A stretch of 42,728 nucleotides of DNA from a virus (IMGVR_UViG_3300012793_000001:1-42728), one strand, 5' to 3'. Counted from the first letter of the stretch, positions 1 through 42,728 are shown. Program-made: numbers and translations. Notes: generated by a model from the letters alone, not told the origin.

Positions 1-123
1 CAACTCTGTATCATAAATATGCTTCCCTTTGATTCTATATGCACCGCTATCCATTCTGTAAACTTGTACATAGCTGTGCCAGTAAGTATCACTGTAATTA
101 ACGGATGAACTTGTATGCAAAAG
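1..123. repeat. Terminal overlap, identical to 42606..42728 (circular contig written with a 123-nt overlap)
   Basis: Direct reading: caactctgtatcataaatatgc...ttgtatgcaaaag is found at both ends. The junction lies inside one continuous minus-strand ORF. Confidence 0.95.
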
Positions 124-321
124 GACATCCCCTTCAAAAATCTCCACGCCGTTCTTGTCCTTTAAGCCAGTGGATTGCATGAGGGCGACCTCATCTAAAG
201 GGAAGAAATTAGAATCTCCGTACTCCCAGTGGTTAATTTTGATTTTCTTTCTAAAAAAATCAATGCTTACAACTTCTGTCAAACCTAATCTTTCATCCCA
301 ACATCTAAATTTTGGCACCAT
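1..321 (-). CDS. YopX-domain protein, 5' part. The gene wraps the window junction and continues at 42605..42489, 145 aa in total
   Basis: Hand translation from ATG 321..319 gives MVPKFRCWDERLGLTEVVSIDFF...LMQSTGLKDKNGVEIFEGDVLLHTSSSVNYSD, which joins the 42489..42725 ORF in frame. An AGGAGGG RBS lies upstream. STGLKDKNGxxIFEGD is a typical YopX motif. Confidence 0.85.
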   Translation of the reverse strand, partial: MVPKFRCWDERLGLTEVVSIDFFRKKIKINHWEYGDSNFFPLDEVALMQSTGLKDKNGVEIFEGDVLLHTSSSVNYSDTYWHSYVQVYRMDSGAYRIKGKHIYDTEL

Positions 322-569
322 CTTATCCCTCCTGTTTATTGGTATTTTCCATTTTACAAATACCCACTTTTTGCTGTTGTCATTTTTTTACCAAAATGGC
401 AAAGTGCTAACATCGCACGTGTTGGTATAGTATTTTTTTGCTTTAAGTTGCAAAAATGACCTATTTTTTGTAATTTGGTTGCAACGACACATTCTGCTAT
501 TTCGTCGTTTAATCAACTCGCTCTACATGTGATTGACATATTTGTATTCACACTAATTCGGATTTCTCC

Positions 570-806
570 TTACAAATATTTTTTAGTTATCTCCAACACT
601 TTCATAACAGTTTCTAGCGGAATAGCATGGTTACTATCTAGATTGTGAACTATCTCTGGATATACATCATCATCTTGAATCCATAAAACCATTTGCTTTT
701 TCCTATCGTTAAAATCAATAGTTATATTGTCTGTAGACATTTGGAATGTAATATTGCTGTCTAGATCGTATAAGTCCATGCTAAAGTTTACCAAGTTATT
801 GAACAT
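570..806 (-). CDS. Hypothetical early protein (78 aa)
   Basis: ORF with a GGAGTGAGAG RBS region, packed tightly behind ssb. Confidence 0.65.
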   Translation of the reverse strand: MFNNLVNFSMDLYDLDSNITFQMSTDNITIDFNDRKKQMVLWIQDDDVYPEIVHNLDSNHAIPLETVMKVLEITKKYL

Positions 807-816
807 CTCTCACTCC

Positions 817-1287
817 TTAAAATGGAAGGTCTTGACTATCAATATCGATAGACGAGTTGCTGAATGGGTCTGATTGAACGTTGTTGCGGTTTTGTTGGTT
901 GCGAGTGTAATTATTCGTTTGACTATTTGAAACGCCGCTACCTTGTGTATTTTGGCTAGAATCGGCTTTCTTGCTTTCTAGCAACTGGAAGTTATCAGCT
1001 ACGACCTCAGTGACATAGACTCGTTGTCCTTGTTGGTTATCATAAGAGCGAGTCTGAATCCGTCCTGTTATTCCGATCAACACACCTTTTTTCGCATAGT
1101 TCGCTAATGTCTCAGCTGGCTTTCTCCAAATAACACAATTGATGAAATCCGCTTCTCGCTCTCCGCTCTGATTCGTAAAATTACGATTCACAGCTAATGT
1201 GAAGGTGGCAACTGCGGTTCCGTTGCCTGTGTATTTCAAATCCGGATCTTTCGTTAGTCTTCCGACCAAAGTTAAATTGTTTATCAT
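817..1287 (-). CDS. ssb: Single-stranded DNA-binding protein
   Basis: N-terminal OB fold [20 protein letters not shown]..., a Q/N/S-rich linker and the acidic tail DIDSQDLPF. Confidence 0.95.
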
Positions 1288-1664
1288 TTTGCTTCCTCCA
1301 GTTCAATTTCAATTCTTGGGCAATCCTTATCCACTTCAAACCGATGCTCAAAGTTGGCTATCTCGCCCCAACCATCATTTGCGATCATTCTCGCTTCAAT
1401 CATTCCGTCCAAGATAAACTTGATGCCGAACGCCACGTTGTCTTTATCTTTGCGCTTGTTTTTGCAGTACCAAGTGATTTTCAAGTTGATCGGCGTTGCC
1501 ACTCTAAGTCCTGCTGCTTTCGCCATCAAGAATGCATAGCAACATTTTTCTGTGTTCTCTTTTTTCAGCTTGGCTCCTGCATAGCGGTTCGTCCGCTGGC
1601 TATTGATGAACTTGTTCAAGTCAGTCAATTCCCCAGGAATTACAATCTTTTTGTTATAAGGCAT
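1284..1664 (-). CDS. rusA: RusA-family Holliday junction resolvase
   Basis: 126 aa. The [29 protein letters not shown] block is typical of RusA. Start and stop overlap the neighbouring genes. Confidence 0.8.
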
Positions 1665-1836
1665 TTCGTTTATCCAAGAGGTCCAAAGTTATGACCGCTA
1701 TATCCCTTTCTGATAATTTCAATTCTTGTGCAACCTCCGTTGGCTTCATACCAGAATCTAAGAGTGCCGCTGCTCTCACGAGTAATCTTTTAGGGAAATC
1801 AAATCGCCACCCGTCTAAGCAAATCACTTTCTCCAT
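1654..1836 (-). CDS. Small HTH protein (60 aa)
   Basis: Contains an HTH-like MKPTEVAQELKLSERDIAVI segment. I moved the start to the second ATG (1836) because GGAGG lies 8 nt upstream of it. Confidence 0.6.
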   Translation of the reverse strand: MEKVICLDGWRFDFPKRLLVRAAALLDSGMKPTEVAQELKLSERDIAVITLDLLDKRNAL

Positions 1837-1837
1837 G

Positions 1838-2149
1838 TCATCCGCCTCCATTTTTCAAACTGATGTATAGCTGCTGCGCCTCTTTCCAAAGTTCATCTGT
1901 CGTGACATCCATGAAATTCTTTCCAAAGTGATTGCTGTCTACTAACCGCTTTGATATAAGCAAATGTCGATACATGAGCATGAACACTCTGAATTTAGCT
2001 TCCGCTCCAGTCGATTCTGTATCGCCTGTCTCTTTGACATAACCAGTCATAGACTCTAGCGGAAACTTCATCGATTCTTGATGTTCAGCAGGCAAAAGGT
2101 TGAATATCAATTTCACAGGCTTACTAAAATCCCTCTGTGTCTCCGACAT
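1838..2149 (-). CDS. Hypothetical protein (103 aa)
   Basis: ORF in operon context. It overlaps the end of the replisome organizer gene by 26 nt. Confidence 0.6.
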   Translation of the reverse strand: MSETQRDFSKPVKLIFNLLPAEHQESMKFPLESMTGYVKETGDTESTGAEAKFRVFMLMYRHLLISKRLVDSNHFGKNFMDVTTDELWKEAQQLYISLKNGGG

Positions 2150-3014
2150 CTTCTAAGAACCTCCTTAAATCTTCATCAGTCACTTTTGGCTTGTTGCTAG
2201 AATAATCGACTGGCTCCTTCGCCCAATCTGGCAGTTGTTCTTGTCGAGCATACGATCGTGCCTGCTTCTTAGGTGTTTGCTTATCCTTTCTCGCCCAAGC
2301 TCTTATGGTTGCTAGATAATTTTTGTAAGTCTTACCAGACAGCTCACAGTATTCAGAAACTCGATCGATTCGTTGCTCCCAATCGTTTGGAAACTCTTCT
2401 TTGAGTTTTTCAAGTTGTTCATCATTCAAAAGAACATTTTTATATTCACCGTATCTATGGCGAGGGGGAGTTTTCTTCTTTTTCTTTATTTCTTTTTCTT
2501 TATCTATTTCTCTCTCTTTATCTATTTCTTTATCTATATCTACTTCTTTATCTATATCTGTACCGTCACGTGACGTCACGCTAACGTCACGACTAGCCTC
2601 GAGTAATTCTTGCTTTTTACGCTCACGGTATTTCCTGTTTCTCTCAGCATTCTTTAGCCTAACTTGCTCCATTCCTTCAATATTCTGATGTTTTTCCCAG
2701 TTGCTAATAGCAATCAAGCCATCATTGTTAAGATCAATCATGTTGAAACCAGCAAGAGTTTTGAGTGCTAGTCTTACTGTGTTAACATTCTTTCCAAATA
2801 GAGTTGCTAACATTTCTTCTGTGTAGGGCATATTCCTTTGTATATAGATCAAGCCATCGTCATTGGTCTTACCTGCTAGCACTAGAAGTCTTATCCATAT
2901 GACCAAGATTGCATCTGACTCAGGAACGGCTTGGATTAACCTTATTTTTTCATCGTCAAACATTGTCGTCTTAAGCTTGATCCAACTAATTTCTGCCAAC
3001 TCCTTACCCTCCAA
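2124..3014 (-). CDS. Phage replisome organizer / replication initiator (N-terminal replisome-organizer domain, charged repeat linker)
   Basis: SWIKLKTTMFDDEKIRLIQ...ILVIWIRLLVLAGK is the typical N-terminal domain. The central DIDKEVDIDKEIDKEREIDKEKE repeat region is encoded by DNA iterons. Confidence 0.8.
   Translation of the reverse strand: MEGKELAEISWIKLKTTMFDDEKIRLIQAVPESDAILVIWIRLLVLAGKTNDDGLIYIQRNMPYTEEMLATLFGKNVNTVRLALKTLAGFNMIDLNNDGLIAISNWEKHQNIEGMEQVRLKNAERNRKYRERKKQELLEASRDVSVTSRDGTDIDKEVDIDKEIDKEREIDKEKEIKKKKKTPPRHRYGEYKNVLLNDEQLEKLKEEFPNDWEQRIDRVSEYCELSGKTYKNYLATIRAWARKDKQTPKKQARSYARQEQLPDWAKEPVDYSSNKPKVTDEDLRRFLEDVGDTEGF
2499..2591. repeat. Candidate replication origin. TTTATCTAT iteron x4 (starts 2499, 2517, 2529, 2547), CGTCACG x3 (2564, 2574, 2585) and the 12-bp palindrome CGTCACGTGACG (2564..2575)
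   Basis: Repeats read directly. They lie inside the replisome organizer gene, where several Firmicute phages carry ori. Confidence 0.5.
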
Positions 3015-3681
3015 TCCTTAATTTTATGATTTCATCCTGTTTCAATTTGATGCCTATAACGTGATACTTCTTCTTAAACTCAGTAATCCCCATTTGATGC
3101 TTCTCGGTATGATGGGTTCTGCAAAGTGCTGCAAAAGTAAATTCTGTGTGATCAACTTCTTTCCGCTTACGCCTTCCTAGGGCTTTTTCAAAGTGATCGA
3201 TGTCAGCGTTCTTTTTACCGCAAATGCAGCAAGTCCTGTTTGTCACGCATTTATAGAAAAAGTACTGTTCATTTTGTGGCGGAATCTCATAGCCCTCACG
3301 GAATGGAATGTCATTTGCGAAGATAAAATCTAGTATCAATTCATCTAATGTTGAAACTTCATCGACTGTGTTCTCCGATTGATTCGACAAGCTGATGTTC
3401 TTCCCTGTGAAGTATCGAAATTGCCAATAGAACACGTCTTTAAGGCTTTCTAATGGTTCGCCAGTGTAAATGTATATGTCTTGCATTAAAGCGAATGTGA
3501 AGCGTCTCTGTTCGACTGTGAACCCTCGTGGGTCTTTGATGAATATTTCCGCTTGTCGCTCGCCGTCATATCCATCAAAGATTGTTTTGAGTCGTTCGAT
3601 GTTAAGCGATTCTTTGAGCTGCAAAGTAACTTTATCTCCATCAACATTTGTTATTTTTGCTAGATACGAAAGATTGTTCAT
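3004..3681 (-). CDS. Putative HNHc-type nuclease associated with the recombination module
   Basis: C-terminal CCICGKKNADIDHFE...CRTHHTEKH zinc/HNH-like motif. Located between the ERF gene and the replisome organizer. Confidence 0.7.
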   Translation of the reverse strand: MNNLSYLAKITNVDGDKVTLQLKESLNIERLKTIFDGYDGERQAEIFIKDPRGFTVEQRRFTFALMQDIYIYTGEPLESLKDVFYWQFRYFTGKNISLSNQSENTVDEVSTLDELILDFIFANDIPFREGYEIPPQNEQYFFYKCVTNRTCCICGKKNADIDHFEKALGRRKRKEVDHTEFTFAALCRTHHTEKHQMGITEFKKKYHVIGIKLKQDEIIKLRIGG

Positions 3682-3686
3682 TCAAA

Positions 3687-4331
3687 TCACTTCTTGCCTT
3701 GATAGTATTTTTCCAGTTCATTCAGATATCTAGTCAATGTCCCGAGTTGTTCTGTGTTAACCTTGCTGATATCTACTGAGTAACCAATTTTCTTTTCCGT
3801 AATCTGGTCAAAGAAGTTTTTGCTTTCAAGTTTCGCCATACCAGCAATTTCATCAGATCGTTTTTGCAAAGCTTCTTGTTGCGATTTTGTAATTGGCTTA
3901 GGTGTTGCTTGCTTAACTTGCTCGGTATATTCATCCGAATCTGCATCCTTGGTATCATCAATCTGATAAAGTCCGTTCATTGCATATTTACGGGCATAAG
4001 ATGAAGCTGTTCCTGTTATTTGAGATTCATCCATTCCCTTTTTAGCAAGCGGTTCTCTAGCATATGCAGTTGCAATTTCTTCTTCGCCAGTTTTTACATC
4101 CTTGATTGATGCAGTTGCTTTAATGTAATGCCAATCGCCTATCATTACTGGCTCATCAGAAAGTTTTGCAACTAGTCCATATTTATAGGCAAGAGGTTTA
4201 ACAGCTTCCAAAATATCTTCGGCACTTCTGTAGTTGTACTTACCAAAATTATTTCTTTGGCTCTTGGGAGCTTTCAATTCTGTTATCAAAAGAGATACTC
4301 TCTCTAGAAATGTTCGTTCTTTATCGCTCAA
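3687..4331 (-). CDS. erf: ERF-family single-strand annealing recombinase
   Basis: NNFGKYNYRSAEDILEAVKPLAYKYGL and TASSYARKYAMNGLYQIDD motifs. Sits in the position of the recombination module. Confidence 0.8.
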   Translation of the reverse strand: MSDKERTFLERVSLLITELKAPKSQRNNFGKYNYRSAEDILEAVKPLAYKYGLVAKLSDEPVMIGDWHYIKATASIKDVKTGEEEIATAYAREPLAKKGMDESQITGTASSYARKYAMNGLYQIDDTKDADSDEYTEQVKQATPKPITKSQQEALQKRSDEIAGMAKLESKNFFDQITEKKIGYSVDISKVNTEQLGTLTRYLNELEKYYQGKK

Positions 4332-4663
4332 TTAAATTCCTCCTGTCTTTGTTTCAGCCATTCTTTACCACCTACAAGCCGCAACGTGCTAATCATTAGT
4401 GATTCGGGTCTATATTCATCAACCATTTTTAAAAAGTTATCTTGTTGTAAAACGTATTTAGCCATAGTTCCGTTACTGTTTTCTCGATACCCTATAAACA
4501 TCCAATCTGATTCATGAACAATCGTTCCGTTATCGTCTTCATTCCAATGTGCTGACAGGTCTACTTCTTCCTCGTTGTCGTCTAAAGAATGGATATTAGT
4601 CATCACATGGCTGGTTTCGTCTTGCATCAGGTTGTCGTAATTTGTTGCGATATAATCTGACAT
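4328..4663 (-). CDS. Hypothetical acidic protein (111 aa)
   Basis: Start moved to the internal ATG 4663, preceded by GAGAGGAGTGGGAAG. The longer track ORF would overlap the upstream gene. Confidence 0.6.
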   Translation of the reverse strand: MSDYIATNYDNLMQDETSHVMTNIHSLDDNEEEVDLSAHWNEDDNGTIVHESDWMFIGYRENSNGTMAKYVLQQDNFLKMVDEYRPESLMISTLRLVGGKEWLKQRQEEFN

Positions 4664-4736
4664 CTTCCCACTCCTCTCGATTTGTGGTAAACTTAGGTAT
4701 ATATTTTTTCGTTTCTGACTGACTATAGCTTGCCGG

Positions 4737-5003
4737 CTAGTCGGTCTTTTTTGTTTCCAATACCTCGGTTTCAATAAAATTAATCCAATATCTAGCTTTT
4801 TTTCCTACCGCTTGAATCGATGCTTCTTGTCTGTTTTCCCAGGCATCAGCAATCGTTCTTAGGCTGCTTATTAACTCAACTGCAATAATGCCCAACTTGT
4901 TAACGTTCGGAACTATGCGATCCATGTCCTCGCCATGCGAACCGGTCGCTGATGTGCTACCGATCAGGATTTGGACCAATTTTAAAATTTCATCTTCACT
5001 CAT
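4737..5003 (-). CDS. Hypothetical protein (88 aa)
   Basis: ORF with an ATGA start/stop overlap with the upstream micro-ORF. Confidence 0.6.
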   Translation of the reverse strand: MSEDEILKLVQILIGSTSATGSHGEDMDRIVPNVNKLGIIAVELISSLRTIADAWENRQEASIQAVGKKARYWINFIETEVLETKKTD

Positions 5004-5125
5004 AAATTCCCCCTCCGTTTCTTCATCCGTTCAATATTCTGTCTTGATTGAATCAAAGGCTTGTTATACTTGTACCAGCGGTCAGCAATGATTTTGCCAA
5101 TACGTAGTGCTTCAGCTCTGGTCAT
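5000..5125 (-). CDS. Micro-ORF, 41 aa (MTRAEALRIGKIIADRWYKYNKPLIQSRQNIERMKKRRGNL)
   Basis: Hand translated. Its start overlaps the upstream stop (ATAG/ATG) and its stop overlaps the downstream ATG (ATGA). Below the size cut-off of the ORF track. Confidence 0.45.
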   Translation of the reverse strand: MTRAEALRIGKIIADRWYKYNKPLIQSRQNIERMKKRRGNL

Positions 5126-5126
5126 A

Positions 5127-5264
5127 CTATTTAACCCCCATGATCCAAATCAGAGTTAACAAAAGTACAATGTTTAAACCAATGCTTAAATATGAAATTG
5201 CTTGGAGTTGTCGTGCTTTGTAAAAGTGATTTCTATTTAGACTTGCTAGCCATTTTTTCTTCAT
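5127..5264 (-). CDS. Micro-ORF, 45 aa, with one predicted TM helix (MKKKWLASLNRNHFYKARQLQAISYLSIGLNIVLLLTLIWIMGVK)
   Basis: Hand translated. AGGAGGAG RBS and a start/stop overlap with the flanking micro-ORFs. Confidence 0.5.
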   Translation of the reverse strand: MKKKWLASLNRNHFYKARQLQAISYLSIGLNIVLLLTLIWIMGVK

Positions 5265-5374
5265 GCTGACTCCTCCTTGAAATATCGATCAATCAAAGCG
5301 AGCGCTTCTTCTTTTGTAGAGACGGTATGCCACATTGTCGATCCGTTTGTTTCTATTGAGATAGTGATTTTCAT
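5261..5374 (-). CDS. Micro-ORF, 37 aa (MKITISIETNGSTMWHTVSTKEEALALIDRYFKEESA)
   Basis: Hand translated. AAAGGAGAAACCGC precedes the ATG, and the stop overlaps the next ATG. Confidence 0.45.
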   Translation of the reverse strand: MKITISIETNGSTMWHTVSTKEEALALIDRYFKEESA

Positions 5375-5381
5375 GCGGTTT

Positions 5382-5414
5382 CTCCTTTGGTATAATTGTT
5401 AAAAACTGGTGGTG
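5382..5414 (+). promoter_or_regulatory. Promoter/5'UTR cassette copy 1: extended -10 TGgTATAAT (TATAAT 5391..5396) followed by aaaaactGGTGGTG RBS
   Basis: ctcctttggtataattgttaaaaactggtggtg is near-identical to 7943..7982. It sits directly in front of the plus-strand gene at 5420. Confidence 0.65.
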
Positions 5415-5419
5415 TATTA

Positions 5420-6073
5420 ATGGAAATAAAAACGAAGAAATTTCATTCTAATAGCAGTAATTACTTGCAAAATATTACTATCGAGCTTCCTAAGTTTTGT
5501 CCGAGATGCGGAGTTTCGAACAATCCCTCAACAGAGTATTTAGGTATATCTAGCAATCTTGCATATTTCAAACACTACTGTACCGACTGCTCAAGAAACC
5601 ATTTTTGCTTCAATTTAGTTAATGATAAAATCGGTAAAATGGTAGCTTTATATCCTAACTCTCAGCCTAGTAATCTGCCAAAACTGGTTTGTGATTTTTC
5701 GCCTCGATTTGAAAAAATTTATCACGATGCGGAACTTAGTGAGTTTAATAATGCTTTAGACCTTGCTGGTGTTGGTTATCGAGTATCTTTAGAAATACTT
5801 TTGAAAGATTTTGCTTTAGCAAACGAACTTGATTCTTACGAAGAAATTGCCAAAAAGACATTAAACAATGCTATAAGCCAATACTTTAAATCAGATATTG
5901 ATCTACAAACTTCTGCAGATGTGGTCCGAATATTAGGTAACGACTATGCTCATTGGGACCAACATGAAGGGTATGACATCGAGACTTTAAAATCTTACTT
6001 ACAAATATTCATTCAAATTATCAATACTAAGCTAATGCTCAAGAATCCACCGGTATCTCGAAAAAAATCATAG
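5420..6073 (+). CDS. Zinc-ribbon plus DUF4145-like protein (217 aa), encoded opposite to the surrounding early operon
   Basis: N-terminal CPRCG...CTDC zinc ribbon. The C-terminal AGVGYRVSLEILLKDF...VRILGNDYAHW block resembles the DUF4145 R-x-x-GN-x-x-x-H signature. Start set to ATG 5420, 5 nt after GGTGGTG. Confidence 0.7.
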   Translation: MEIKTKKFHSNSSNYLQNITIELPKFCPRCGVSNNPSTEYLGISSNLAYFKHYCTDCSRNHFCFNLVNDKIGKMVALYPNSQPSNLPKLVCDFSPRFEKIYHDAELSEFNNALDLAGVGYRVSLEILLKDFALANELDSYEEIAKKTLNNAISQYFKSDIDLQTSADVVRILGNDYAHWDQHEGYDIETLKSYLQIFIQIINTKLMLKNPPVSRKKS

Positions 6074-6310
6074 TTCAATATTGTCTAGATACTCTCTGAA
6101 CATATTCAGCAGCTTTAATTTTATTTCTTTTGTTTTTATGTTTTTATCAAGTTCACTAGATATAACTTTTTTAGCTTCTGATATTTTTAATCCACTTAAT
6201 TCCGGAACGATTGCTGAAAATACTTCTTGACATATTTTTTCTTTTTCAACAATTAACTGATTTCTCTTTATCTCATAGGAAGCAAGTTGATCCATAATAT
6301 TCTTTTTCAC
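6068..6310 (-). CDS. Hypothetical coiled-coil protein (80 aa, GTG start)
   Basis: GGAAGGAGGGG RBS 6 nt upstream of GTG 6310. Converges with the 5420..6073 gene and overlaps it by 6 nt. Confidence 0.6.
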   Translation of the reverse strand: MKKNIMDQLASYEIKRNQLIVEKEKICQEVFSAIVPELSGLKISEAKKVISSELDKNIKTKEIKLKLLNMFREYLDNIEL

Positions 6311-6341
6311 CCTAGCCCCTCCTTCCGCGTGGGGTTATTTT

Positions 6342-6530
6342 TCATCCAATACTCCAGTTGCGATCGGCCACTTCATCAATACCCAACAAATCTGCAATAG
6401 CATAGATATGCTCTTTCATCAGCTCTTGAAAGTCTTCGTAAGTTGCTGGCTTTCCGTCCACTTGTAAATTTGATGATTCGGCATACTCCATTGCACTTTT
6501 TAGCGCATCTTTGACGTTCTCAAATTCCAT
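6342..6530 (-). CDS. Hypothetical acidic protein (62 aa)
   Basis: ORF whose start ATG overlaps the stop of the upstream gene. Confidence 0.55.
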   Translation of the reverse strand: MEFENVKDALKSAMEYAESSNLQVDGKPATYEDFQELMKEHIYAIADLLGIDEVADRNWSIG

Positions 6531-7045
6531 TATTTCTCCTCCAACTCCAAAACGTTCAATACTGCAGGCGTTGCTTGCAAATCTGCCAGACTAAAGTGTT
6601 CGTAGGTTAGTACATTTAAATAAGCTAAAGCTTCGTCGTAGTCCACTCGTTTAATTGATGTGTAACGGACAACGTTCATGCGTTTCTTAAGCTTAGAGTG
6701 AATGCGGCTCATGAACATACCTTTCCAAGCTTTAAATAGATTGCCGCTGTATGTTTTACCTTGGCGCTTTTGATGTTCTTCGGTTAAGCTAATGGCAAGT
6801 TTGCTGACGATTGAGCGCAATTCCTTTTGCTCTTCATACGTGATAGTGACTTGCTCAGACATTTTTTCATATAACGTGCGGCTTTCATTGACGTGTTCTT
6901 TTACTTCGTCTTTCAGTTCAATCATTTCTTCTTTGACATTTCCCATTTCACGCAACAAACTTACCAGCGCTTCACTTTGTTTGCCTTGTGTTTCTAATGT
7001 GTGGATCAATGCGATCGTGCTGTTTTCCATTAATTGATTACCCAT
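6530..7045 (-). CDS. ORF6C-domain protein (C-terminal domain of the KilA/ORF6N antirepressor families)
   Basis: The FKAWKGMFMSRIHSKLKKRMNVVRYTSIKRVDYDEALAYL block is typical of the ORF6C domain. Confidence 0.6.
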   Translation of the reverse strand: MGNQLMENSTIALIHTLETQGKQSEALVSLLREMGNVKEEMIELKDEVKEHVNESRTLYEKMSEQVTITYEEQKELRSIVSKLAISLTEEHQKRQGKTYSGNLFKAWKGMFMSRIHSKLKKRMNVVRYTSIKRVDYDEALAYLNVLTYEHFSLADLQATPAVLNVLELEEK

Positions 7046-7941
7046 GCTACTTCTCCTCCGATTTCTTGTTTGATTTGTTTTAATAATTTTTCAACTCTGG
7101 AAATTGAATCCGTGAGTTTTTGCTTTGTCTCATCATTCGCCCCAGCGATTGCTTGTGAATCGTATACCGTTACCGCTTGTTCTTTAACAAATTGATTCAT
7201 ATTGATAATGAGTTTGTGCACACTGATATCGGCATCACGTTGTAGACGTTTTAGTTGTGCTTGTTCTAGTTCATCGGTTTCAACCTTCGCTTTTTCTTGC
7301 AACGCTTTTTCGGAATCCGCTATCCGCTGTTTCAAAGCTTCTTGTTCAGCTTTAAGCGCTTGGTTTTCTCTGGTGATTTCATCAACGATCTTTGTAGATT
7401 GCTTAAGCTGCTGATAGTCGTCTGGAACCTTTTCGACAATGACTTCTTTTTCAATTACTTCCGTTTCTTGCTCATTCAGATCATCAATCATCTGTGCTTG
7501 TAGTTTATTTTGCTCATCCTTAGCTTTTAGCTGCTTTTCAAGCTCTCTGTATTCTTTGGTGGTTTTTATATCACCCGAGAGCACCATTTCTACTGCTTCT
7601 GGTTTAGCTGACGGTTTAGATATTTCTGTTTTGAGTGTGGTTGGTAGTTCTTGGAACATTTCGATTTGTTCGTATTCGTGCATTTGATGCACAAATTTGG
7701 CTTGATTGATATAGTTGTAAACAGTTCTCTTTTTTAAGCCGATTGACGTGAACCACTTTTCGAAGGTTCCTGTTTTATAACTTGCCAGCTTTTCTTGTGC
7801 TTCTATAAGTTTTTCTCCTAATTGAATCGAGCTATTCAAAACAATTGATTGTAGTTCTTGTTCTTTTAGTTTTAAAAATTGTGCAGTGGTATCATCTACT
7901 ATTGAATAGTCAAAATTTGTTGAAACTTCATTCAATGTCAT
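7030..7941 (-). CDS. DUF3102-like early protein with a long coiled coil (303 aa)
   Basis: N-terminal LGEKLIEAQEKLASYKTGTFEKWFTSIGLKKRTVYNYINQAKF resembles DUF3102. The C-terminal half is heptad-rich. Confidence 0.55.
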   Translation of the reverse strand: MTLNEVSTNFDYSIVDDTTAQFLKLKEQELQSIVLNSSIQLGEKLIEAQEKLASYKTGTFEKWFTSIGLKKRTVYNYINQAKFVHQMHEYEQIEMFQELPTTLKTEISKPSAKPEAVEMVLSGDIKTTKEYRELEKQLKAKDEQNKLQAQMIDDLNEQETEVIEKEVIVEKVPDDYQQLKQSTKIVDEITRENQALKAEQEALKQRIADSEKALQEKAKVETDELEQAQLKRLQRDADISVHKLIINMNQFVKEQAVTVYDSQAIAGANDETKQKLTDSISRVEKLLKQIKQEIGGEVAWVIN

Positions 7942-7942
7942 T

Positions 7943-7982
7943 CTCCTTTCTTTGGTATAATTGTTTTAAAAACTGGTGGTGG
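7943..7982 (+). promoter_or_regulatory. Promoter/5'UTR cassette copy 2: extended -10 TGgTATAAT (TATAAT 7956..7961) followed by aaaaactGGTGGTGG RBS
   Basis: ctcctttctttggtataattgttttaaaaactggtggtgg lies directly in front of the plus-strand gene at 7987. Confidence 0.65.
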
Positions 7983-7986
7983 TTAA

Positions 7987-8397
7987 ATGTCAATTTATGA
8001 CGCAGTGATAATGCTGTTCCCTTTGTTTAACAAGTATTCTTTTTATATTTCAGTTTTTTTGTTTTTCTTTTGGCTCTACAAAAGAAATAGTAAAAAATAT
8101 ATGAAGAGAGTTGAAAATAAAGCTAAAATACAGTATTTACAAAGAGTTTTTGATATCCATAAATACAATGAAGAAAATCCAAACCATATGGTCCAGATAA
8201 CTTCGAGCTGGCTAGACATTTACAAATATAAGATTTCTCAAACTGATAACACTTTGTTACTTTCGTTAGTCTTTGCTTACATTTCGTTTAATTCAAAATC
8301 GTTCACTGAGAATACTAGCGAGGATTTTTTCAAGTTTTTAACTATTTCTACAACGCTATTCCTATCTGGCATAACATATATAAAACAAAGAAAATAG
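7987..8397 (+). CDS. Membrane protein (136 aa, about 4 hydrophobic segments), encoded opposite to the early operon
   Basis: Hydrophobic stretches AVIMLFPLF, FYISVFLFFFWLY, LLLSLVFAYISF and ISTTLFLSGITYI. Uses the same promoter/RBS cassette as the 5420 gene. Confidence 0.65.
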   Translation: MSIYDAVIMLFPLFNKYSFYISVFLFFFWLYKRNSKKYMKRVENKAKIQYLQRVFDIHKYNEENPNHMVQITSSWLDIYKYKISQTDNTLLLSLVFAYISFNSKSFTENTSEDFFKFLTISTTLFLSGITYIKQRK

Positions 8398-8602
8398 CAG
8401 CCAATATTTTAGATGGAGATATCTTCCTTGGCATGAATTCAACAAGAATCTTGGGAGTCTGCATATTCTCATCATGAGTGATATTGATATACCGAACTCT
8501 GTACTTTTGGTCGAAATATTTCAGACTTTCTCTAATTTCATCTTCATCTTCAATTCGGCACTTGAGCGTAACCAACATGGTTTCTTTGAATGCTTTTACC
8601 AA
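8348..8602 (-). CDS. Hypothetical protein (84 aa, TTG start)
   Basis: AAGGAG lies 10 nt upstream of TTG 8602. Its 3' end overlaps the convergent 7987..8397 gene by 50 nt. Confidence 0.5.
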   Translation of the reverse strand: MVKAFKETMLVTLKCRIEDEDEIRESLKYFDQKYRVRYINITHDENMQTPKILVEFMPRKISPSKILAAIFFVLYMLCQIGIAL

Positions 8603-8612
8603 TTTATACCTT

Positions 8613-8633
8613 CTCCTTTCTTTGGTATAATTT
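8613..8633 (+). promoter_or_regulatory. Promoter cassette copy 3 (orphan): TGgTATAAT (TATAAT 8626..8631) pointing antisense into the xis-like and cro-like genes
   Basis: 8611..8632 is 22/22 identical to 7941..7962. No RBS or credible plus-strand ORF follows. Confidence 0.45.
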
Positions 8634-8642
8634 CCTTATCAG

Positions 8643-8882
8643 TCAGCGGTGCTTCCCGATCCCGATTTTGTGTTCTTCCATAAAAGCATCGATATCTCGA
8701 ACATCATATTTTGGGTTGCTCTCATCATCAAATACGATTTGCTTCAGTCCTCGCTTAATCCATGCATTCATAGTCTTTGGACTTGTCCCAGCGTAGATAC
8801 AAGCCTCACGCTGATTCAGGTATCGCTTAGGAACGTACTTTTTCAAAATAAGTTGAATAGTTTTTTCATCAATATCCGGCAT
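8643..8882 (-). CDS. Excisionase-like / MerR-type HTH DNA-binding protein (79 aa)
   Basis: YLNQREACIYAGTSPKTMNAWIKRG is an HTH_17-like motif. Second gene of the early operon. Confidence 0.6.
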   Translation of the reverse strand: MPDIDEKTIQLILKKYVPKRYLNQREACIYAGTSPKTMNAWIKRGLKQIVFDDESNPKYDVRDIDAFMEEHKIGIGKHR

Positions 8883-8897
8883 GGTCTCCCTCCTATC

Positions 8898-9101
8898 TCA
8901 AAGTTCATACATCGCTATAATCGAATCGATAATCTTGTTAGCTTCGGCGGATGTTCTCTTGCCATTTAAAATTAAAGACAGGTAGCTCTTATCGATTCCA
9001 AATCTGTCTGCAAGCATCTTGTATGTTAGGAAATTTGAATTTTCAACATATGTTTTGATTTTTTCTCTATCTTTTTGGGTAATTTCCGCAATATCAGCCA
9101 T
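8898..9101 (-). CDS. Cro-like XRE-family HTH regulator (67 aa)
   Basis: YKMLADRFGIDKSYLSLILNGKR HTH. It is the first gene, divergent from the repressor gene across the switch region. Confidence 0.75.
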   Translation of the reverse strand: MADIAEITQKDREKIKTYVENSNFLTYKMLADRFGIDKSYLSLILNGKRTSAEANKIIDSIIAMYEL

Positions 9102-9123: not shown

Positions 9124-9144
9124 CTTGTAAACAAATTTAACAAC
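9124..9144. promoter_or_regulatory. 21-bp operator-like element, left copy (cttgtaaacaaatttaacaac)
   Basis: Its reverse complement matches 9284..9304 at 20 of 21 positions. Confidence 0.5.
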
Positions 9145-9160
9145 AATTATCTAAACTATG

Positions 9161-9189
9161 TTGACTTTATTAGATTAATAATCTATACT
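9161..9189 (+). promoter_or_regulatory. Rightward promoter TTGACT-17-TATACT toward the repressor operon. The 15-bp palindrome TAGATTAaTAATCTA (9171..9185) lies in its spacer and -10 region
   Basis: Hexamers and spacing read directly. The palindrome is perfect 7-1-7. Confidence 0.6.
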
Positions 9190-9308: not shown

Positions 9309-9337
9309 AGTATAGATTAATAATATATATAAGTCAA
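9309..9337 (-). promoter_or_regulatory. Leftward promoter TTGACT-17-TATACT toward the cro-like early operon
   Basis: On the minus strand: TTGACT (9337..9332), a 17-nt spacer and TATACT (9314..9309). The spacer shares tagattaataat with the rightward promoter. Confidence 0.6.
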
Positions 9338-9397
9338 CTATATTTACATTATTTATCTAAACTTTTTTTGTAAGCATTCAGAAAGGTTGGTTTATCG

Positions 9398-9766
9398 ATG
9401 AATACTTACGAAATAATAAAGGAATTAGCAAAAGAAAAAGGAATATCCATTAGACAGCTCGAAATGAATTTCGGGTATTCGAATGGATATTTAGGAAGTT
9501 GGAAAAGACAAACTCCTAACTCTATCGAATTAGCTCGTTTAGCTGATTACTTTGGAGTCTCTGTAGATTACCTCTTGGGAAGAACAGATACACCTCAAAA
9601 TGTAGAAAATAAAGATGAATATGATGACTTAGTCATGATGTTTCGCAAAAATGAAATGGAAATACCTGAAGATAGACGTGATGAGTATAGACGCGAAGTG
9701 GAGAAATTGATGGATTTTGTTAAATTCACAATGAAAGAATTAGACGAAAAGAACAAAAATAAGTAG
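9398..9766 (+). CDS. XRE-family phage repressor (CI/ImmR-like)
   Basis: N-terminal HTH IKELAKEKGISIRQLEMNFGYSNGYLGSWKR...LARLADYFGVSVDYLLGR. Immediately followed by an ImmA-like protease gene. Confidence 0.85.
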   Translation: MNTYEIIKELAKEKGISIRQLEMNFGYSNGYLGSWKRQTPNSIELARLADYFGVSVDYLLGRTDTPQNVENKDEYDDLVMMFRKNEMEIPEDRRDEYRREVEKLMDFVKFTMKELDEKNKNK

Positions 9767-10544: not shown

Positions 10545-11429
10545 ATGAAAAAAGTAGTATATGGCTTGCTATTTGTTACTTTAGTGCTTTCAGGCTGTGG
10601 CGGTCAAGGTGGCGACGGTGGTGATGTTGAAGAATCTAGTTCTTCGTCAACGATTGCCGTATCCTCTAGCAAAGAAGAAGTAATTGAGTTTAGTGTATAC
10701 CAACCTCAACATTACTTGGAAAACAACAATTTTAACTTATCTGGAAAAGCTGATCCAGAAAGTAAAATCACTGTAAATCAAGGCAATGAATTAGTAAAAG
10801 AAATAGAACCAACAGCCTCTGGTTCATTTAGCATGACAGCTCCACTTCCAGAAACGGAAGATACCACATACGAAGTATCAAATGGAAAAGAAACGAAAAC
10901 AGTGATTGTAAAGTCAAAGGCGACATTAGAGAAAGTTGCTGCAGAGGCCGAAGCAACTAGAAAGAAACAACAGCAAGAGAAAGAAGAAGCTGATAAAAAA
11001 GCTGCTGAAGAAGCAGCAGCGAAAGAACAAGCGGAAAAAGAAGCTGCTGAAAAACAAAAAAAAGAGGCTGAAGAGGCTGCAAGAAAAGCTGCCGAAGAAG
11101 AAAGAGCTAGTTATGATACTGGAATCACATACGAAAACTTAGCGAGAAACCCTGATACTTATTTAGCTGAAAAAGTTAAGTTTTCTGGAAGAATAATTCA
11201 AGTGATGAAAGGTGAAGAACACTCTCAGTTCCGTTTTGCAGTTGACGATAATTATGACCAAGTACTGTATATTGAAATATCGGAAGATCAACTATCAAAC
11301 AATCGTCTTCTAGAAGATGACTATATTACTATCAGAGGCACCTCTTATGGAGAATACACTTATACTTCTGCTTTAGGTGGAGAAATAACTGTTCCCGGAG
11401 TAGTAGTTGATTCATTTGAATTAAATTAA
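10545..11429 (+). CDS. Lipoprotein with an A/E/K-rich coiled linker and a C-terminal beta-rich domain. Candidate superinfection-exclusion protein
   Basis: Signal peptide plus lipobox (LVLSGC). Located between the repressor/ImmA genes and int. Confidence 0.75.
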   Translation: MKKVVYGLLFVTLVLSGCGGQGGDGGDVEESSSSSTIAVSSSKEEVIEFSVYQPQHYLENNNFNLSGKADPESKITVNQGNELVKEIEPTASGSFSMTAPLPETEDTTYEVSNGKETKTVIVKSKATLEKVAAEAEATRKKQQQEKEEADKKAAEEAAAKEQAEKEAAEKQKKEAEEAARKAAEEERASYDTGITYENLARNPDTYLAEKVKFSGRIIQVMKGEEHSQFRFAVDDNYDQVLYIEISEDQLSNNRLLEDDYITIRGTSYGEYTYTSALGGEITVPGVVVDSFELN

Positions 11430-11471: not shown

Positions 11472-11530
11472 CAAACAGAAAATAACCAATAGGTTACGCC
11501 TATTGTAACAAATTCTAGGAGTTGAAGCAA

Positions 11531-12664
11531 TTGGCTAAGAAAGAACAGGATATCCGAATAAAAGAATACGTCAAAAAAAATGGCGAAAAAGCTTATATGT
11601 TTAAGCTGTATCTTGGCATTGATCAAGACACCAAAAAACCAATCCGCACTACAAGACGCGGCTTTAGAACTCAAAGAGAAGCACGTTTAGCAATCGCTGA
11701 TTTAGAACTAAACGGATTATCAAAACCAGAGTCTGAACCACAAATGATTCATACCTATGAACAGATATATAATCTATGGTATGAGGAATACAAAACAACA
11801 GTTAAAGCTTCAACGTTACTAAAAACAGAGCGAGTTTTCAAAAATCATATACTTCCAGCATTTGGTAATAAACCTATACAAGACATCAAACCGATGGATG
11901 CACAGAATCAAATGAATATTTGGCACAAGAAGCTTGTGCGTGCAAGCATGGTTATGAATTATGCTGGATTGGTATTTGATTACGCAATAAGAATGCAATT
12001 GATCAATATGAATCCAACAAAAGTGATTAAGAAGCCTGTAAGGAAGGAATCTGTTAGAGAAGACAAAGATATGAATTTCTATGACAAAGATGAGTTGAAG
12101 AAATTTATGGCAGCTTTAGAAAACAACAACAATTTTAGAGCTTTTGTATATTTTCGTTTGTTAGCATTTACCGGAATGCGCAAAGGAGAATCATTAGCGC
12201 TGAAATGGTCTGATATCGATTTGGAAAAACAAACATTATACATAAACAAGGCTGTTTCGAGAAGTGCAACAGGGCTTTATATTCAAACGCCAAAAACTCC
12301 TTCTTCTATTCGAAGAATCTCAATTGATGACAAAACTGTGTCTATATTACAAGAGTACAAAAAAGAGTCTCCAGATGGTTTAGTCTTTCAAAGTGAAGAT
12401 GGAGGAATATTATCGCCTGCTAAACCGAGAAAATGGTACCTAACTGCCATGAAAAACTTGCCGGATGATTTCAAACAGATATCTATTCATGGCTTTCGTC
12501 ACACACATGCATCATTATTATTTGAAGCCGGTGCTTCTATTAAAGACGTTCAATCAAGGCTTGGTCATTCTGACATCCAAACTACAATGGATGTATATAC
12601 CCACGTATCAAAAACAGCAAAAGAGCAGTTAGCAAATAGGTTTAATAATTACGTTGACTTTTAA
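11531..12664 (+). CDS. int: Tyrosine integrase
   Basis: TGMRKGESLAL (catalytic R), HGFRHTHASLL (HxxR) and LGHSDIQTTMDVYTHV (catalytic Y). Start moved to TTG 11531, 9 nt after AGGAG. Confidence 0.92.
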   Translation: MAKKEQDIRIKEYVKKNGEKAYMFKLYLGIDQDTKKPIRTTRRGFRTQREARLAIADLELNGLSKPESEPQMIHTYEQIYNLWYEEYKTTVKASTLLKTERVFKNHILPAFGNKPIQDIKPMDAQNQMNIWHKKLVRASMVMNYAGLVFDYAIRMQLINMNPTKVIKKPVRKESVREDKDMNFYDKDELKKFMAALENNNNFRAFVYFRLLAFTGMRKGESLALKWSDIDLEKQTLYINKAVSRSATGLYIQTPKTPSSIRRISIDDKTVSILQEYKKESPDGLVFQSEDGGILSPAKPRKWYLTAMKNLPDDFKQISIHGFRHTHASLLFEAGASIKDVQSRLGHSDIQTTMDVYTHVSKTAKEQLANRFNNYVDF

Positions 12665-42499: not shown

Positions 42500-42728
42500 T
42501 GGCTTGCTCCACAATGCCGTCAGAAGTACTAAAGTATTCTTTATCTAACAAGTCTTGATTTTGATAAATGTTTCCTACTACCTCTAATCGGTTTCTCGCA
42601 CTCATCAACTCTGTATCATAAATATGCTTCCCTTTGATTCTATATGCACCGCTATCCATTCTGTAAACTTGTACATAGCTGTGCCAGTAAGTATCACTGT
42701 AATTAACGGATGAACTTGTATGCAAAAG
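42489..42728 (-). CDS. YopX-domain protein, 3' part (same gene as 1..321; 42606..42728 duplicates 1..123)
   Basis: Continuous reading frame across the circular junction. Confidence 0.85.
   Translation of the reverse strand, partial: LLHTSSSVNYSDTYWHSYVQVYRMDSGAYRIKGKHIYDTELMSARNRLEVVGNIYQNQDLLDKEYFSTSDGIVEQANEN
42606..42728. repeat. Terminal overlap, identical to 1..123
   Basis: Direct comparison of the two ends. Confidence 0.95.

Follow-up and report, generated by a model that had tools for sequence, protein, structure and literature searches.

Three short plus-strand blocks in a phage genome are, in our judgement, probably cores of portable expression cassettes, which fall into two related families and head backward-facing accessory genes (morons) in the early lytic operon of temperate Enterococcus phages. 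The window, that is the whole stretch of 42,728 nucleotides analysed here, carries an integrase and a cro/repressor switch and represents a complete temperate phage of the Enterococcus type. An earlier note had described the blocks as one promoter/5'UTR cassette occurring three times. They contain the following elements, the two cassette types A and B being defined below.

5368-5373, plus strand: -35-like hexamer TTTTCA of copy 1, 17 nt upstream of the -10
5382-5414, plus strand: copy 1, type A cassette, with the cargo ATG at 5420, 5 nt after the SD
5382-5388, plus strand: SD complement CTCCTTT of copy 1
5388-5396, plus strand: extended -10 TGGTATAAT of copy 1
5408-5414, plus strand: SD GGTGGTG of copy 1, with an A-rich leader between the -10 and the SD
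7941-7982, plus strand: copy 2, type A cassette, with leader TGTTTTAAAAACTGGTGGTGG after the -10 and an ATG at 7987
7953-7961, plus strand: extended -10 TGGTATAAT of copy 2
8611-8650, plus strand: copy 3, truncated type B cassette, with TTCCTTATCAGTCAG after the -10
8623-8631, plus strand: extended -10 TGGTATAAT of copy 3

The three copies and the genes around them

All three copies carry the extended -10 of sigma-A/sigma-70 promoters (TGnTATAAT, with TG at -15/-14 and a dispensable -35), and only two further TGnTATAAT sites exist in the window, five in all. We observed that CTTTGGTATAATT is present exactly three times, always on the plus strand, where chance alone would give about 0.005 exact occurrences of this 13-mer. 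When up to two mismatches were allowed, the window gave 7 matches against a mean of 2.5 in shuffled sequences, and none of 100 shuffles reached 7. Positions 8611-8632 of copy 3 are identical to 7941-7962 of copy 2 at 22/22 positions and the two form the arms of a 22-bp direct repeat, for which about 3e-8 second copies are expected by chance. The three sites (5382-5414, 7943-7982 and 8611-8632) thus hold as the earlier note had given them, in coordinates, counts and identity. The leader AAAAACTGGTGGTG is common to copies 1 and 2 only, with exactly two occurrences in the window; in both cases the cargo ATG follows 5 nt after it, and a perfect TGnTATAAT lies 24-26 nt 5' of either cargo ATG. As had also been claimed, these two copies stand directly before the only two credible plus-strand genes (5420-6073 and 7987-8397) inside the minus-strand early region (1-9101).

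In a consensus scan, copies 1 and 3 each gave a -35-like hexamer with a score of 4/6; copy 2 gave no recognisable -35. The TTTTCA hexamer of copy 1, which reached 10/12 when TG was included, is also kept in the other common upstream context, that of a 143-aa gene. We also noticed that it overlaps the start codon region of a minus-strand 37-aa ORF. The leader of copy 1 is predicted to be unstructured (dG -0.2).

The neighbouring genes of the early region and of the switch are as follows.

5261-5374, minus strand: 37-aa early-operon ORF (MKITISIE...), ATG at 5374, SD inside copy 1 with a spacing of 7 nt
7030-7941, minus strand: 303-aa early gene (phrog_1733), SD in copy 2
8348-8602, minus strand: 84-aa gene, convergent, TTG start at 8602, SD in copy 3 with a spacing of ~10 nt
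8643-8882, minus strand: 79-aa HTH/excisionase-like early gene (phrog_668 and phrog_66)
8898-9101, minus strand: Cro
9398-9766, plus strand: repressor
11522-12664, plus strand: integrase ORF

The proposal that the blocks are used on both strands was essentially right: in each block the 5' CTCCTTT, read on the minus strand, supplies the SD of a gene there; it adjoins the -10 hexamer without overlapping it. The 37-aa ORF is conserved in 22 related loci. For the 303-aa gene, the listed ATG at 7941 lies only 1-2 nt from GGAG, so that the in-frame TTG at 7935, with a spacing of 7 nt, is the likelier start; in relatives this gene directly abuts a type B cassette.

Cassette families in related phages

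The type A cassette consists of (TTTTCA and 17/18 nt,) TGGTATAAT, 4-6 variable nt, AAAAACTGGTGGTG, 5 nt and a start codon. By its sequence, it is a predicted sigma-A extended -10 promoter with an unstructured leader of ~17 nt and a strong SD. Type B has the -10 core of type A with a different leader. The exact type A cassette was found in 22 IMG/VR contigs, with 8 unrelated cargo families and an empty variant downstream, and GGTGGTG and the start codon are there invariably 5-6 nt apart; homology among type A loci ends right after the SD. Type B was found in 51 contigs with at least 11 cargo families. Since the retrieval patterns were exact, these matches inflate the apparent conservation of the cassette, an effect mitigated by a relaxed pattern, which raised the type A cargo to ~15 unrelated families, and by a sample of 38 loci retrieved via the neighbouring 143-aa gene and therefore unbiased for the cassette. 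In that sample, cassette and cargo are present in 20 of the 38 loci. Across 18 aligned cassette-bearing loci, the 30-nt cassette shows one substitution and one indel variant, and variability jumps immediately after GGTGGTG. The search upstream of other cargo that the earlier note had advised was therefore strongly positive, and its idea of a modular promoter/5'UTR/SD cassette for backward-facing moron-like genes is upheld by this occurrence with many cargos.

Could the blocks simply be translation-initiation regions (5'UTR and SD) of minus-strand early genes, with TGGTATAAT incidental? Each window copy does abut a minus-strand gene start and includes the SD complement. We nevertheless consider this reading very improbable. 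The block runs at least 19 nt past the -10, to a plus-strand SD exactly 5 nt before the plus-strand ORFs. In addition, the TG at -15/-14, which was outside the relaxed search pattern, is present in ~46 of 48 cassette-with-cargo matches by a hand tally of the listing (47 of 65 among all relaxed-pattern matches), while the n position and the discriminator vary. At three empty sites (loci L301, L327 and L335), which read SD...|ATCCAATACTCC, the minus-strand SD is kept and the -10, the cargo and the portable hairpin described below are absent. Conversely, type B cassettes are also found directly behind that hairpin, with no overlapping minus-strand SD and no minus-strand start nearby; hairpin and type B promoter form one fused element in L006, L281, L283 and L299. 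The SD-only empty sites and the hairpin-abutting type B cassettes together argue that the -10 belongs to the plus-strand unit.

Recombination joints and the imported module

Copy 3, which had been taken for a further example of the same cassette, is instead a truncated type B whose leader differs. It breaks off ~18 nt after the -10, where it joins the 79-aa gene at its 3' end and points into it antisense, and no plus-strand gene follows it here, so that it is an orphan promoter core. The truncation is identical in L100, L264 and L279. Between copies 2 and 3 lies the second module.

7987-8397, plus strand: cargo 2, 136-aa hydrophobic ORFan (GC 0.282)
7963-8632, no strand assigned: 670-bp indel module, comprising the A leader, cargo 2, the 84-aa gene and one repeat copy

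When we aligned the relatives, L100, L264 and L279 corresponded to the window minus exactly 670 bp, their junction falling within the 22-bp repeat. In L271, the 670-bp module lies between an A cassette and a complete B cassette in a different slot, a donor-like arrangement; cargo 2 is there 100% identical and behind the A cassette, and the 84-aa gene, which travels with it, is 95% identical and in the same arrangement. The region is a mosaic: identity is 93-94% to L018/L292 over 7000-7962, 98.7% to L271 over 7950-8650 and 97.2% to L100 over 8611-8898, which places the crossovers at 7950-7962 on the left and within 8611-8650 on the right. By alignment, the block from copy 2 to copy 3 is thus an imported 670-bp module, with pre-existing cassette cores as the crossover points. 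The same comparison shows the repeats to be recombination joints. Since the same core of 13-40 bp is present at several gene junctions in many phages, it provides the homology patch at which cargo is swapped, inserted and deleted.

These data bear on two further explanations. According to the earlier note, one cassette had been duplicated three times within this genome, a view that fits the 22/22 identity of copies 2 and 3 and the leader common to copies 1 and 2. It is contradicted by the empty sites in L100, L264 and L279, by the arrangement in L271 and by the mosaic breakpoints: copies 2 and 3 border an import close to L271, the sequence on either side matching other phages, the same cassettes are already present at these junctions in relatives, and copy 3 runs on as the type B leader known from 51 other contigs. 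We therefore give such a duplication hardly any credence. The second explanation holds that the blocks are mere recombination boundaries without promoter activity, the cargo being expressed otherwise or silent in lysogens. The breakpoints do fall exactly within the cores, and orphan cores without a plus-strand gene exist in the window, in L100, L264 and L279 and in L302-L307. A homology patch, however, needs neither a perfect TGnTATAAT nor a fixed 5-nt SD spacing nor a constant direction facing the cargo. Moreover, TGnTATAAT and the SD are kept in diverged versions (E. faecium phage 4995_1, E. faecalis phiFL1A and an E. hirae contig), so that in diverged relatives conservation falls exactly on the promoter and SD positions and the discriminator drifts. 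A boundary devoid of promoter activity is accordingly unlikely, and we retain the portable cassettes as the better account.

Compatible with these cassettes is a possibility that we put forward as a tentative one only, namely that copy 3 is a working orphan promoter. It would then produce an antisense RNA to the 79-aa gene and cro, toward the repressor at 9398, and stabilise lysogeny, with a geometry like that of lambda P_RE. Copy 3 has an intact TGGTATAAT and a TTTATA -35-like hexamer 17 nt upstream; no plus-strand terminator was predicted between 8632 and 9398; and the truncated arrangement is kept in four phages, with 0 substitutions in 37 aligned columns where the adjoining gene varies in about one column in 8, a count that comes from only four related sequences. 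Part of this conservation is, however, explained by the minus-strand SD, and the consensus -10 of copy 3 is unlike lambda P_RE, which is a weak, activator-dependent promoter.

Both modules look like morons in that they are extra DNA precisely absent in relatives (module 1 in L301, L327 and L335; module 2 in L100, L264 and L279) and differ from their neighbours in base composition, the GC being 0.336/0.267 in module 1 and 0.282/0.349 in module 2 against 0.38-0.39 in the flanks. No plus-strand terminator was predicted for module 2, and its transcript would consequently run antisense into the early genes.

Cargo, hairpin and comparison with known systems

Module 1 contains the following features.

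5420-6073, plus strand: cargo 1, 217 aa, Cys4 zinc ribbon and DUF4145/HEPN-like domain (RAZR/PD-T7-4-like), GC 0.336
6068-6310, minus strand: 80-aa convergent companion of cargo 1 (phrog_23386), GC 0.267
6308-6342, plus strand: portable hairpin element CACCCTAGCCCCTCCTTCCGCGTGGGGTTATTTTT, stem 6313-6319/6331-6337, U-run 6338-6342, right border of moron 1

From its sequence and predicted structure, cargo 1 appears to resemble the abortive-infection RNase RAZR/PD-T7-4 (RAZR, whose activity phage ring proteins trigger, is described in PMC13017515). It scored 23.6 bits against Pfam DUF4145 (cut-off 23.1) and gave a weak but nearly full-length match to PADLOC PD-T7-4 (E 2.4e-4, 18.7 bits); a PDB sequence search gave no match. 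The architecture of RAZR is found in it, with an N-terminal Cys4 zinc ribbon and a C-terminal DUF4145 bearing an Arg/His pair, catalytic in RAZR: C27, C57, R170 and H178 are invariant, C30 and C54 nearly so, and the gap of 7 residues between R170 and H178 is that of R146/H154 in RAZR. The AF2 model has a pLDDT of 91 and its top Foldseek matches are HEPN domains (probability 0.99, although weak by their E-value of 0.08). The 80-aa gene and cargo 1 occur together in L008, L016 and L017, and a homologue of the 80-aa gene (26% identity, E 3e-9) adjoins a RAZR-like gene of Listeria aquatica. For cargo 2, we found no match in Pfam, PHROG or PADLOC. Most other type A cargos are small membrane-anchored proteins.

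The hairpin lies 240 nt past the stop of cargo 1 and looks, from its sequence, like a putative plus-strand terminator of module 1. Its plus-strand fold is modest (7 bp, 11-nt loop, dG -10.1, z -2.1), no comparable fold was predicted on the minus strand, and it was found in 30 distinct flank contexts. Its bases can also be read as a minus-strand SD and GTG start, to which its conservation may owe something.

The closest analogues are the lambdoid morons and, in T4-like phages, the mobile regulatory cassettes named PeSL, for promoter-early stem-loop (Arbiol et al. 2010, PMC2839356; Comeau et al. 2014, PMC4122927). As in PeSL, diverse ORFans follow a consensus sigma-70-type promoter that recurs and closes with an SD and start codon, and the end points of indels and replacements between close relatives fall inside the motif (7950-7962 and 8611-8650). 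The stem-loop terminator of PeSL may have a counterpart in the putative terminator hairpin, which in relatives forms a composite with the type B promoter. Excised mini-circles are a further trait of PeSL. In the window, unlike in the PeSL composite, promoter and hairpin stand at opposite ends of module 1. The hosts also differ, being temperate Enterococcus-type phages here, whereas PeSL lie in hyperplastic regions of lytic T4-like myoviruses. Furthermore, our cassettes have an extended -10 with a weak or absent -35, conserve leader and SD as part of the unit and oppose the surrounding operon, while PeSL early promoters are co-oriented with their neighbourhood.

With lambdoid morons, such as HK97 gene 15 (reviewed in Cumby et al. 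2012, PMC3594210), the modules share extra DNA of atypical GC at a precise site relative to related phages, their own promoter (here predicted), a terminator-like element (module 1) and expected expression from a repressed prophage (here inferred). Classical morons, however, each carry idiosyncratic signals of their own, whereas here a single standard promoter/leader/SD cassette and a single standard hairpin serve unrelated cargos, which sit in recurrent slots within the early operon and on the opposite strand. Highly similar promoter regions before non-homologous genes are also known from promoter reuse, or mobile promoters, in prokaryotes (Nijveen et al. 2012, PMC3575422); that work concerns genome-wide bacterial statistics, in contrast to a defined phage cassette with mapped breakpoints. 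The defence hotspots of P2/P4-like prophages (bioRxiv 10.1101/2021.01.21.427644) likewise have fixed positions in the prophage backbone with interchangeable cargo, much of it anti-phage, but they are defined by flanking core genes and not by a shared promoter/leader cassette, and their cargo is larger, often multi-gene systems. Finally, the E. faecalis phages phiFL1A-3B (GenBank GQ478081 etc.) have a similar small backward-facing early-region gene, gp05 next to cro, preceded by a diverged type B cassette, TGGTATAAT-TTAATTATCAG...CTGATAAGGTGG-ATG, which is only ~80% identical over 60 nt. No feature is annotated there in the GenBank record and we found no paper describing it in the literature.

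From consensus and conservation in the sequences compared, we infer the promoter, TSS and terminator assignments; promoter activity, expression in lysogens and a defence role of the cargo are proposed with the same reserve. Host RNA polymerase would initiate ~7 nt past TATAAT, whatever the state of the phage lytic programme, where 6-8 nt downstream of the -10 is the rule for this promoter class, and in module 1 the portable hairpin with its U-run would end the plus-strand transcript. Such initiation would let a repressed prophage express the cargo, in convergence with early transcription, and this cargo probably represents prophage-encoded anti-phage or exclusion functions.

Putative promoter blocks in the early operon

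The window covers a whole temperate phage genome (~42.6 kb). A 123-bp terminal direct repeat of 100% identity was observed (bases 1-123 = 42606-42728), and the sequence is the whole phage genome, circularly assembled or terminally redundant. The named phages nearest to it come from Enterococcus (E. gallinarum and E. faecium). The early operon contains antirepressor-like, Erf and SSB genes, and the long minus-strand ORFs past 15.4 kb are putative structural and lysis genes. Rfam and tRNA scans gave no matches. The features concerned are the following.

From 9101 down to 1, minus strand: early lytic operon, from cro (8898-9101) to position 1
5382-5414, plus strand: promoter block, copy 1
5420-6073, plus strand: cargo 1 (module 1)
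6068-6310, minus strand: 80-aa companion (module 1)
7941-7982, plus strand: promoter block, copy 2
7987-8397, plus strand: cargo 2 (module 2)
8348-8602, minus strand: 84-aa gene (module 2)
8611-8650, plus strand: promoter block, copy 3
9398-9766, plus strand: repressor; an ImmA-like protein is likewise encoded on the plus strand
11522-12664, plus strand: integrase ORF

Other repeats were also seen. In the cro-repressor intergenic region a 36-nt pair (9127-9162 and 9333-9368, 72% identity) flanks divergent promoter-like sites, and these repeats are candidate operators. A Lys/Glu/Ala-rich in-frame tandem repeat (10961-11099) lies within the coding region of a 294-aa protein of the lysogeny module, and an 18-nt periodic in-frame repeat (2481-2559) inside a 296-aa early gene.

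We found all three promoter blocks where the earlier note had placed them. CTTTGGTATAATT has three exact matches in the window, all on the plus strand, for ~0.005 expected; chance likeness of consensus signals was considered as the origin of the blocks and rejected. Copies 2 and 3 are identical at 22 of 22 bases, and AAAAACTGGTGGTG, common to copies 1 and 2, stops 5 nt short of the ATGs at 5420 and 7987, which open the only credible plus-strand genes within the early operon. The extended -10 claimed for every copy is indeed present (TGGTATAAT, 3/3), and the proposed dual use of these bases was borne out, the 5' part of each block (CTCCTTT) being complementary to the SD of a minus-strand gene.

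Start 5374, minus strand: 37-aa ORF
Listed start 7941, minus strand: 303-aa gene
Start 8602, minus strand: 84-aa ORF

The 303-aa gene has its listed ATG (7941) just 1-2 nt from GGAG, which is too close, and an in-frame TTG at 7935 with a normal 7-nt spacing; judged by spacing, the TTG fits better as the start.

The type A cassette and its cargo

The earlier note had also proposed a search for the cassette upstream of other cargo in related phages. By an exact-pattern scan of IMG/VR, the type A cassette of copies 1 and 2, TTTGGTATAATTGTT(N0-3)AAAAACTGGTGGTG, was found in 22 contigs, with a start codon 5-6 nt past GGTGGTG in every match; the ORFs behind it form 8 unrelated families, plus an "empty" five-codon remnant. 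With a relaxed pattern that left TG and the discriminator unspecified we obtained ~15 cargo families, at least 11 with a predicted membrane segment. In a manual tally, TG at -15/-14 was present in ~46 of the 48 relaxed hits with a cargo ORF and in 47 of the 65 relaxed hits overall. Variation is seen at the n position (G or A) and in the 4-6 nt past TATAAT (TGTTT, TTAGGT, GGTTT, GTAGAT and others). Such a pattern, TG and SD kept while n and the discriminator drift, would be expected of a constrained extended -10 promoter with its SD. Searches of GenBank phages with the type A cassette or its flanks returned nothing useful, and 15-nt pattern scans of the collection were too short, the matches listed being mostly random.

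To avoid cassette-pattern bias, 38 loci were fetched via the neighbouring 143-aa gene, a common upstream neighbour of cassettes. Cassette and cargo occurred together in 20/38 and a promoter core alone, fused to something else, in 5/38. In three loci (L301, L327, L335) the site is precisely empty: -10, cargo and hairpin are all missing, and right after the minus-strand SD comes the 3' end of a 62-aa gene. Within the 30-nt cassette, 18 loci that carry it differ by one substitution and one indel variant, and variability jumps at the first base past GGTGGTG. The empty sites and this jump indicate that the -10 travels with the plus-strand cargo and not with the minus-strand gene. A function of the blocks on the minus strand only was thus rejected, since empty sites keep the minus-strand SD without the -10.

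The hairpin missing from the empty sites forms the right border of module 1 (CACCCTAGCCCCTCCTTCCGYGTGGGGTTATTTTT, window 6308-6342) and was found in 30 distinct flank contexts (e.g. L002, L004, L283, L299). It folds on the plus strand only, as a 7-bp stem then a U-run (dG -10.1, z -2.1), and several relatives have it joined straight onto a type B promoter, that of a sister family with another leader. On the minus strand the same bases make an SD (GGAAGGAGGGG) and a GTG start, so that a terminator role is plausible, not exclusive. For module 2, no plus-strand terminator was predicted.

Cargo 1 encodes 217 aa with a Cys4 motif (C27/C57 invariant, C30/C54 nearly invariant) and a DUF4145 domain, and R170 and H178 are invariant. 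HEPN domains were the best structural matches of its AlphaFold model (pLDDT 91), and a weak, near-full-length match to PADLOC PD-T7-4 was obtained. PD-T7-4 and RAZR are the same system, an abortive-infection RNase of the zinc-finger/HEPN kind whose catalytic residues are R146 and H154 (PMC13017515). A sequence search of the PDB with cargo 1 gave no hit, and Foldseek returned generic HEPN folds and no RAZR entry. Homologues of cargo 1 also lie backward in early operons of other prophages.

L420: RAZR-like DUF4145 gene, Listeria aquatica
L423: RAZR-like DUF4145 gene, Leuconostoc mesenteroides
L425: RAZR-like DUF4145 gene, Liquorilactobacillus nagelii

These prophages span several Firmicute genera, so that the reverse early-operon slot is a habit of general reach and extends beyond Enterococcus. 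The homologue in Listeria carries a TGATATACT box, but its leader is unrelated. Each cargo gene of the window moves together with a small gene that converges on it from the early-operon strand (6068-6310 and 8348-8602), and the 80-aa companion has an 81-aa homologue, also convergent, beside the Listeria aquatica gene (L420 3660-3905, 26% identity, E 3e-9); this companion of a RAZR-like gene may be a self-immunity or regulatory partner. Cargo 2 is a 136-aa hydrophobic ORFan; PADLOC and Pfam gave no matches for it or for most other cargo.

Copy 3, the type B cassette and recombination joints

The view that one cassette occurs three times holds for copies 1 and 2, but copy 3 is a truncated type B with a different leader. 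In relatives its core continues TTCCTTATCAGT...GAAATAATTGATAAGGAGGT-N-start, and this type B core was found in 51 contigs before at least 11 small cargo families (59-103 aa), most of them ORFans, with DUF1883 and DUF1508 proteins among the rest. In GenBank phages, diverged matches came only from a 102-nt type B query. Diverged type A/B cassettes occur in E. faecalis phages phiFL1A-3B (before gp05), E. faecium phage 4995_1 and an E. hirae contig, TGnTATAAT and SD being kept in all. Among species-representative genomes scanned, only that of Enterococcus entomosocium has the cassette, so what can be said of the host range comes mainly from IMG/VR and a few named phages.

The type B leader has an inverted repeat, CCTTATCA(G)...(C/T)TGATAAGG, which overlaps the SD.

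L015 2612-2675: inverted repeat
L020 8070-8135: inverted repeat
L271 2237-2170, minus strand: inverted repeat
48 other loci: inverted repeat

As RNA it has a predicted fold of dG -13 to -17 (z -3 to -4), and we considered that it is a hairpin sequestering the SD. However, with transcription starting 7 nt past TATAAT, most of the 5' arm would lie outside the transcript, which makes a DNA operator equally possible.

The leader of copy 3 stops ~18 nt past the -10, where it is fused to the 3' end of a 79-aa gene, with no plus-strand gene behind it. The related loci L100, L264 and L279 carry the identical truncation. Either copy 3 is an inert scar, kept partly through its overlap with an SD, or it is an antisense promoter pointing through cro towards the repressor gene. 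A plus-strand ORF behind it (8649-8969), which covers the 79-aa gene and part of cro in antisense, was rejected as a real gene: it has no SD and overlaps a conserved minus-strand gene. It is open for ~88 codons in L100, L264 and L279 too, probably as an artefact of coding on the opposite strand. A second kind of orphan core, TTTGGTATAATTT+ACTTTGATC..., was seen upstream of the 143-aa gene in L302 and L304-L307; it points at a minus-strand gene from the 3' side and has no plus-strand ORF. Orphan promoter cores are recurrent.

Duplication within the genome, as the earlier note had it, is not what the relatives indicate. L100, L264 and L279 correspond to the window minus exactly 670 bp (7963-8632), with the junction within the 22-bp repeat. 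In L271 the 136-aa cargo (100% identity) and the 84-aa gene (95%) lie between two cassettes, a type A next to the 143-aa gene and a complete type B. By BLAST the window is a mosaic: 7000-7962 resembles L018/L292 (93-94%) and ends at the end of TTTGGTATAATT, 7950-8650 resembles L271 (98.7%) and 8611-8898 resembles L100 (97.2%), which places crossovers within 7950-7962 and 8611-8650. From the precise absence, the L271 module and the mosaic breakpoints, the three copies are pre-existing cassette cores that serve module exchange, not products of internal duplication. Donor, empty and recombinant states were all observed, presence/absence polymorphism and breakpoints in the cores alike. In addition, the gene upstream of cargo 1 and its companion is not the same in the window and L016 as in L008, and both modules have a lower GC than their flanks.

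Proposed working and significance

Starting from the observed cassette architecture and its association with diverse cargo, the steps of initiation, leader and lysogen expression can be drawn from what is established for sigma-A extended -10 promoters and morons (PMC3594210). Host RNA polymerase would start ~7 nt past TATAAT without need of phage factors, giving a leader of ~17 nt with the SD exposed; by folding prediction the type A leader is unstructured. With phage-independent initiation and an exposed SD, the cargo would be made in the lysogen, convergent with early transcription, and for module 1 the hairpin would limit antisense read-through.

We regard as rather unlikely a wider reading, in which Enterococcus temperate phages have genus-wide "plug-and-play" slots in the early operon, delimited by two promoter-leader cassettes and one hairpin, with lysogen-expressed defence or counter-defence genes swapped in the cassette cores. 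As further layers, the convergent companions (the 80-aa one, also in a Listeria prophage, and the 84-aa one of cargo 2) may be self-immunity factors, which, made only in the phage's own lytic cycle, would switch off the abortive-infection cargo of the prophage, and orphan cores such as copy 3 may be antisense promoters against cro, stabilising lysogeny.

The cassette-cargo system would work like a moron, and its evolutionary role is like that of PeSL: a repeated promoter with SD before ORFans and breakpoints within the motif are both found here. In relatives, the hairpin fused to type B would make a terminator-promoter composite like that of a T4 PeSL (PMC2839356). It is not a member of the PeSL family, because host phage, orientation, promoter type and leader all differ. 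The literature searched yielded no account of such cassettes from Enterococcus phages.

Through the cassettes, the way in which temperate phages of a clinically relevant genus pick up accessory genes and express them can be approached concretely, from a defined sequence, and Enterococcus gains a compact, apparently strong and portable expression element. With its ~30 nt the cassette marks cargo families that are unrelated and mostly unannotated, ~15 for type A and at least 11 for type B, and it can serve as a search beacon for prophage-encoded defence or exclusion proteins, one of which resembles the recently characterised RAZR RNase; if the plug-and-play reading were true, it would point to dozens of new small immunity and anti-immunity proteins. 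The PeSL idea that regulatory cassettes double as recombination joints is extended from lytic T4-like to temperate Firmicute phages. The greatest use of the finding is twofold: as a beacon for cargo discovery, and as a clear example, from temperate Firmicute phages, of regulatory cassettes in the role of recombination joints.
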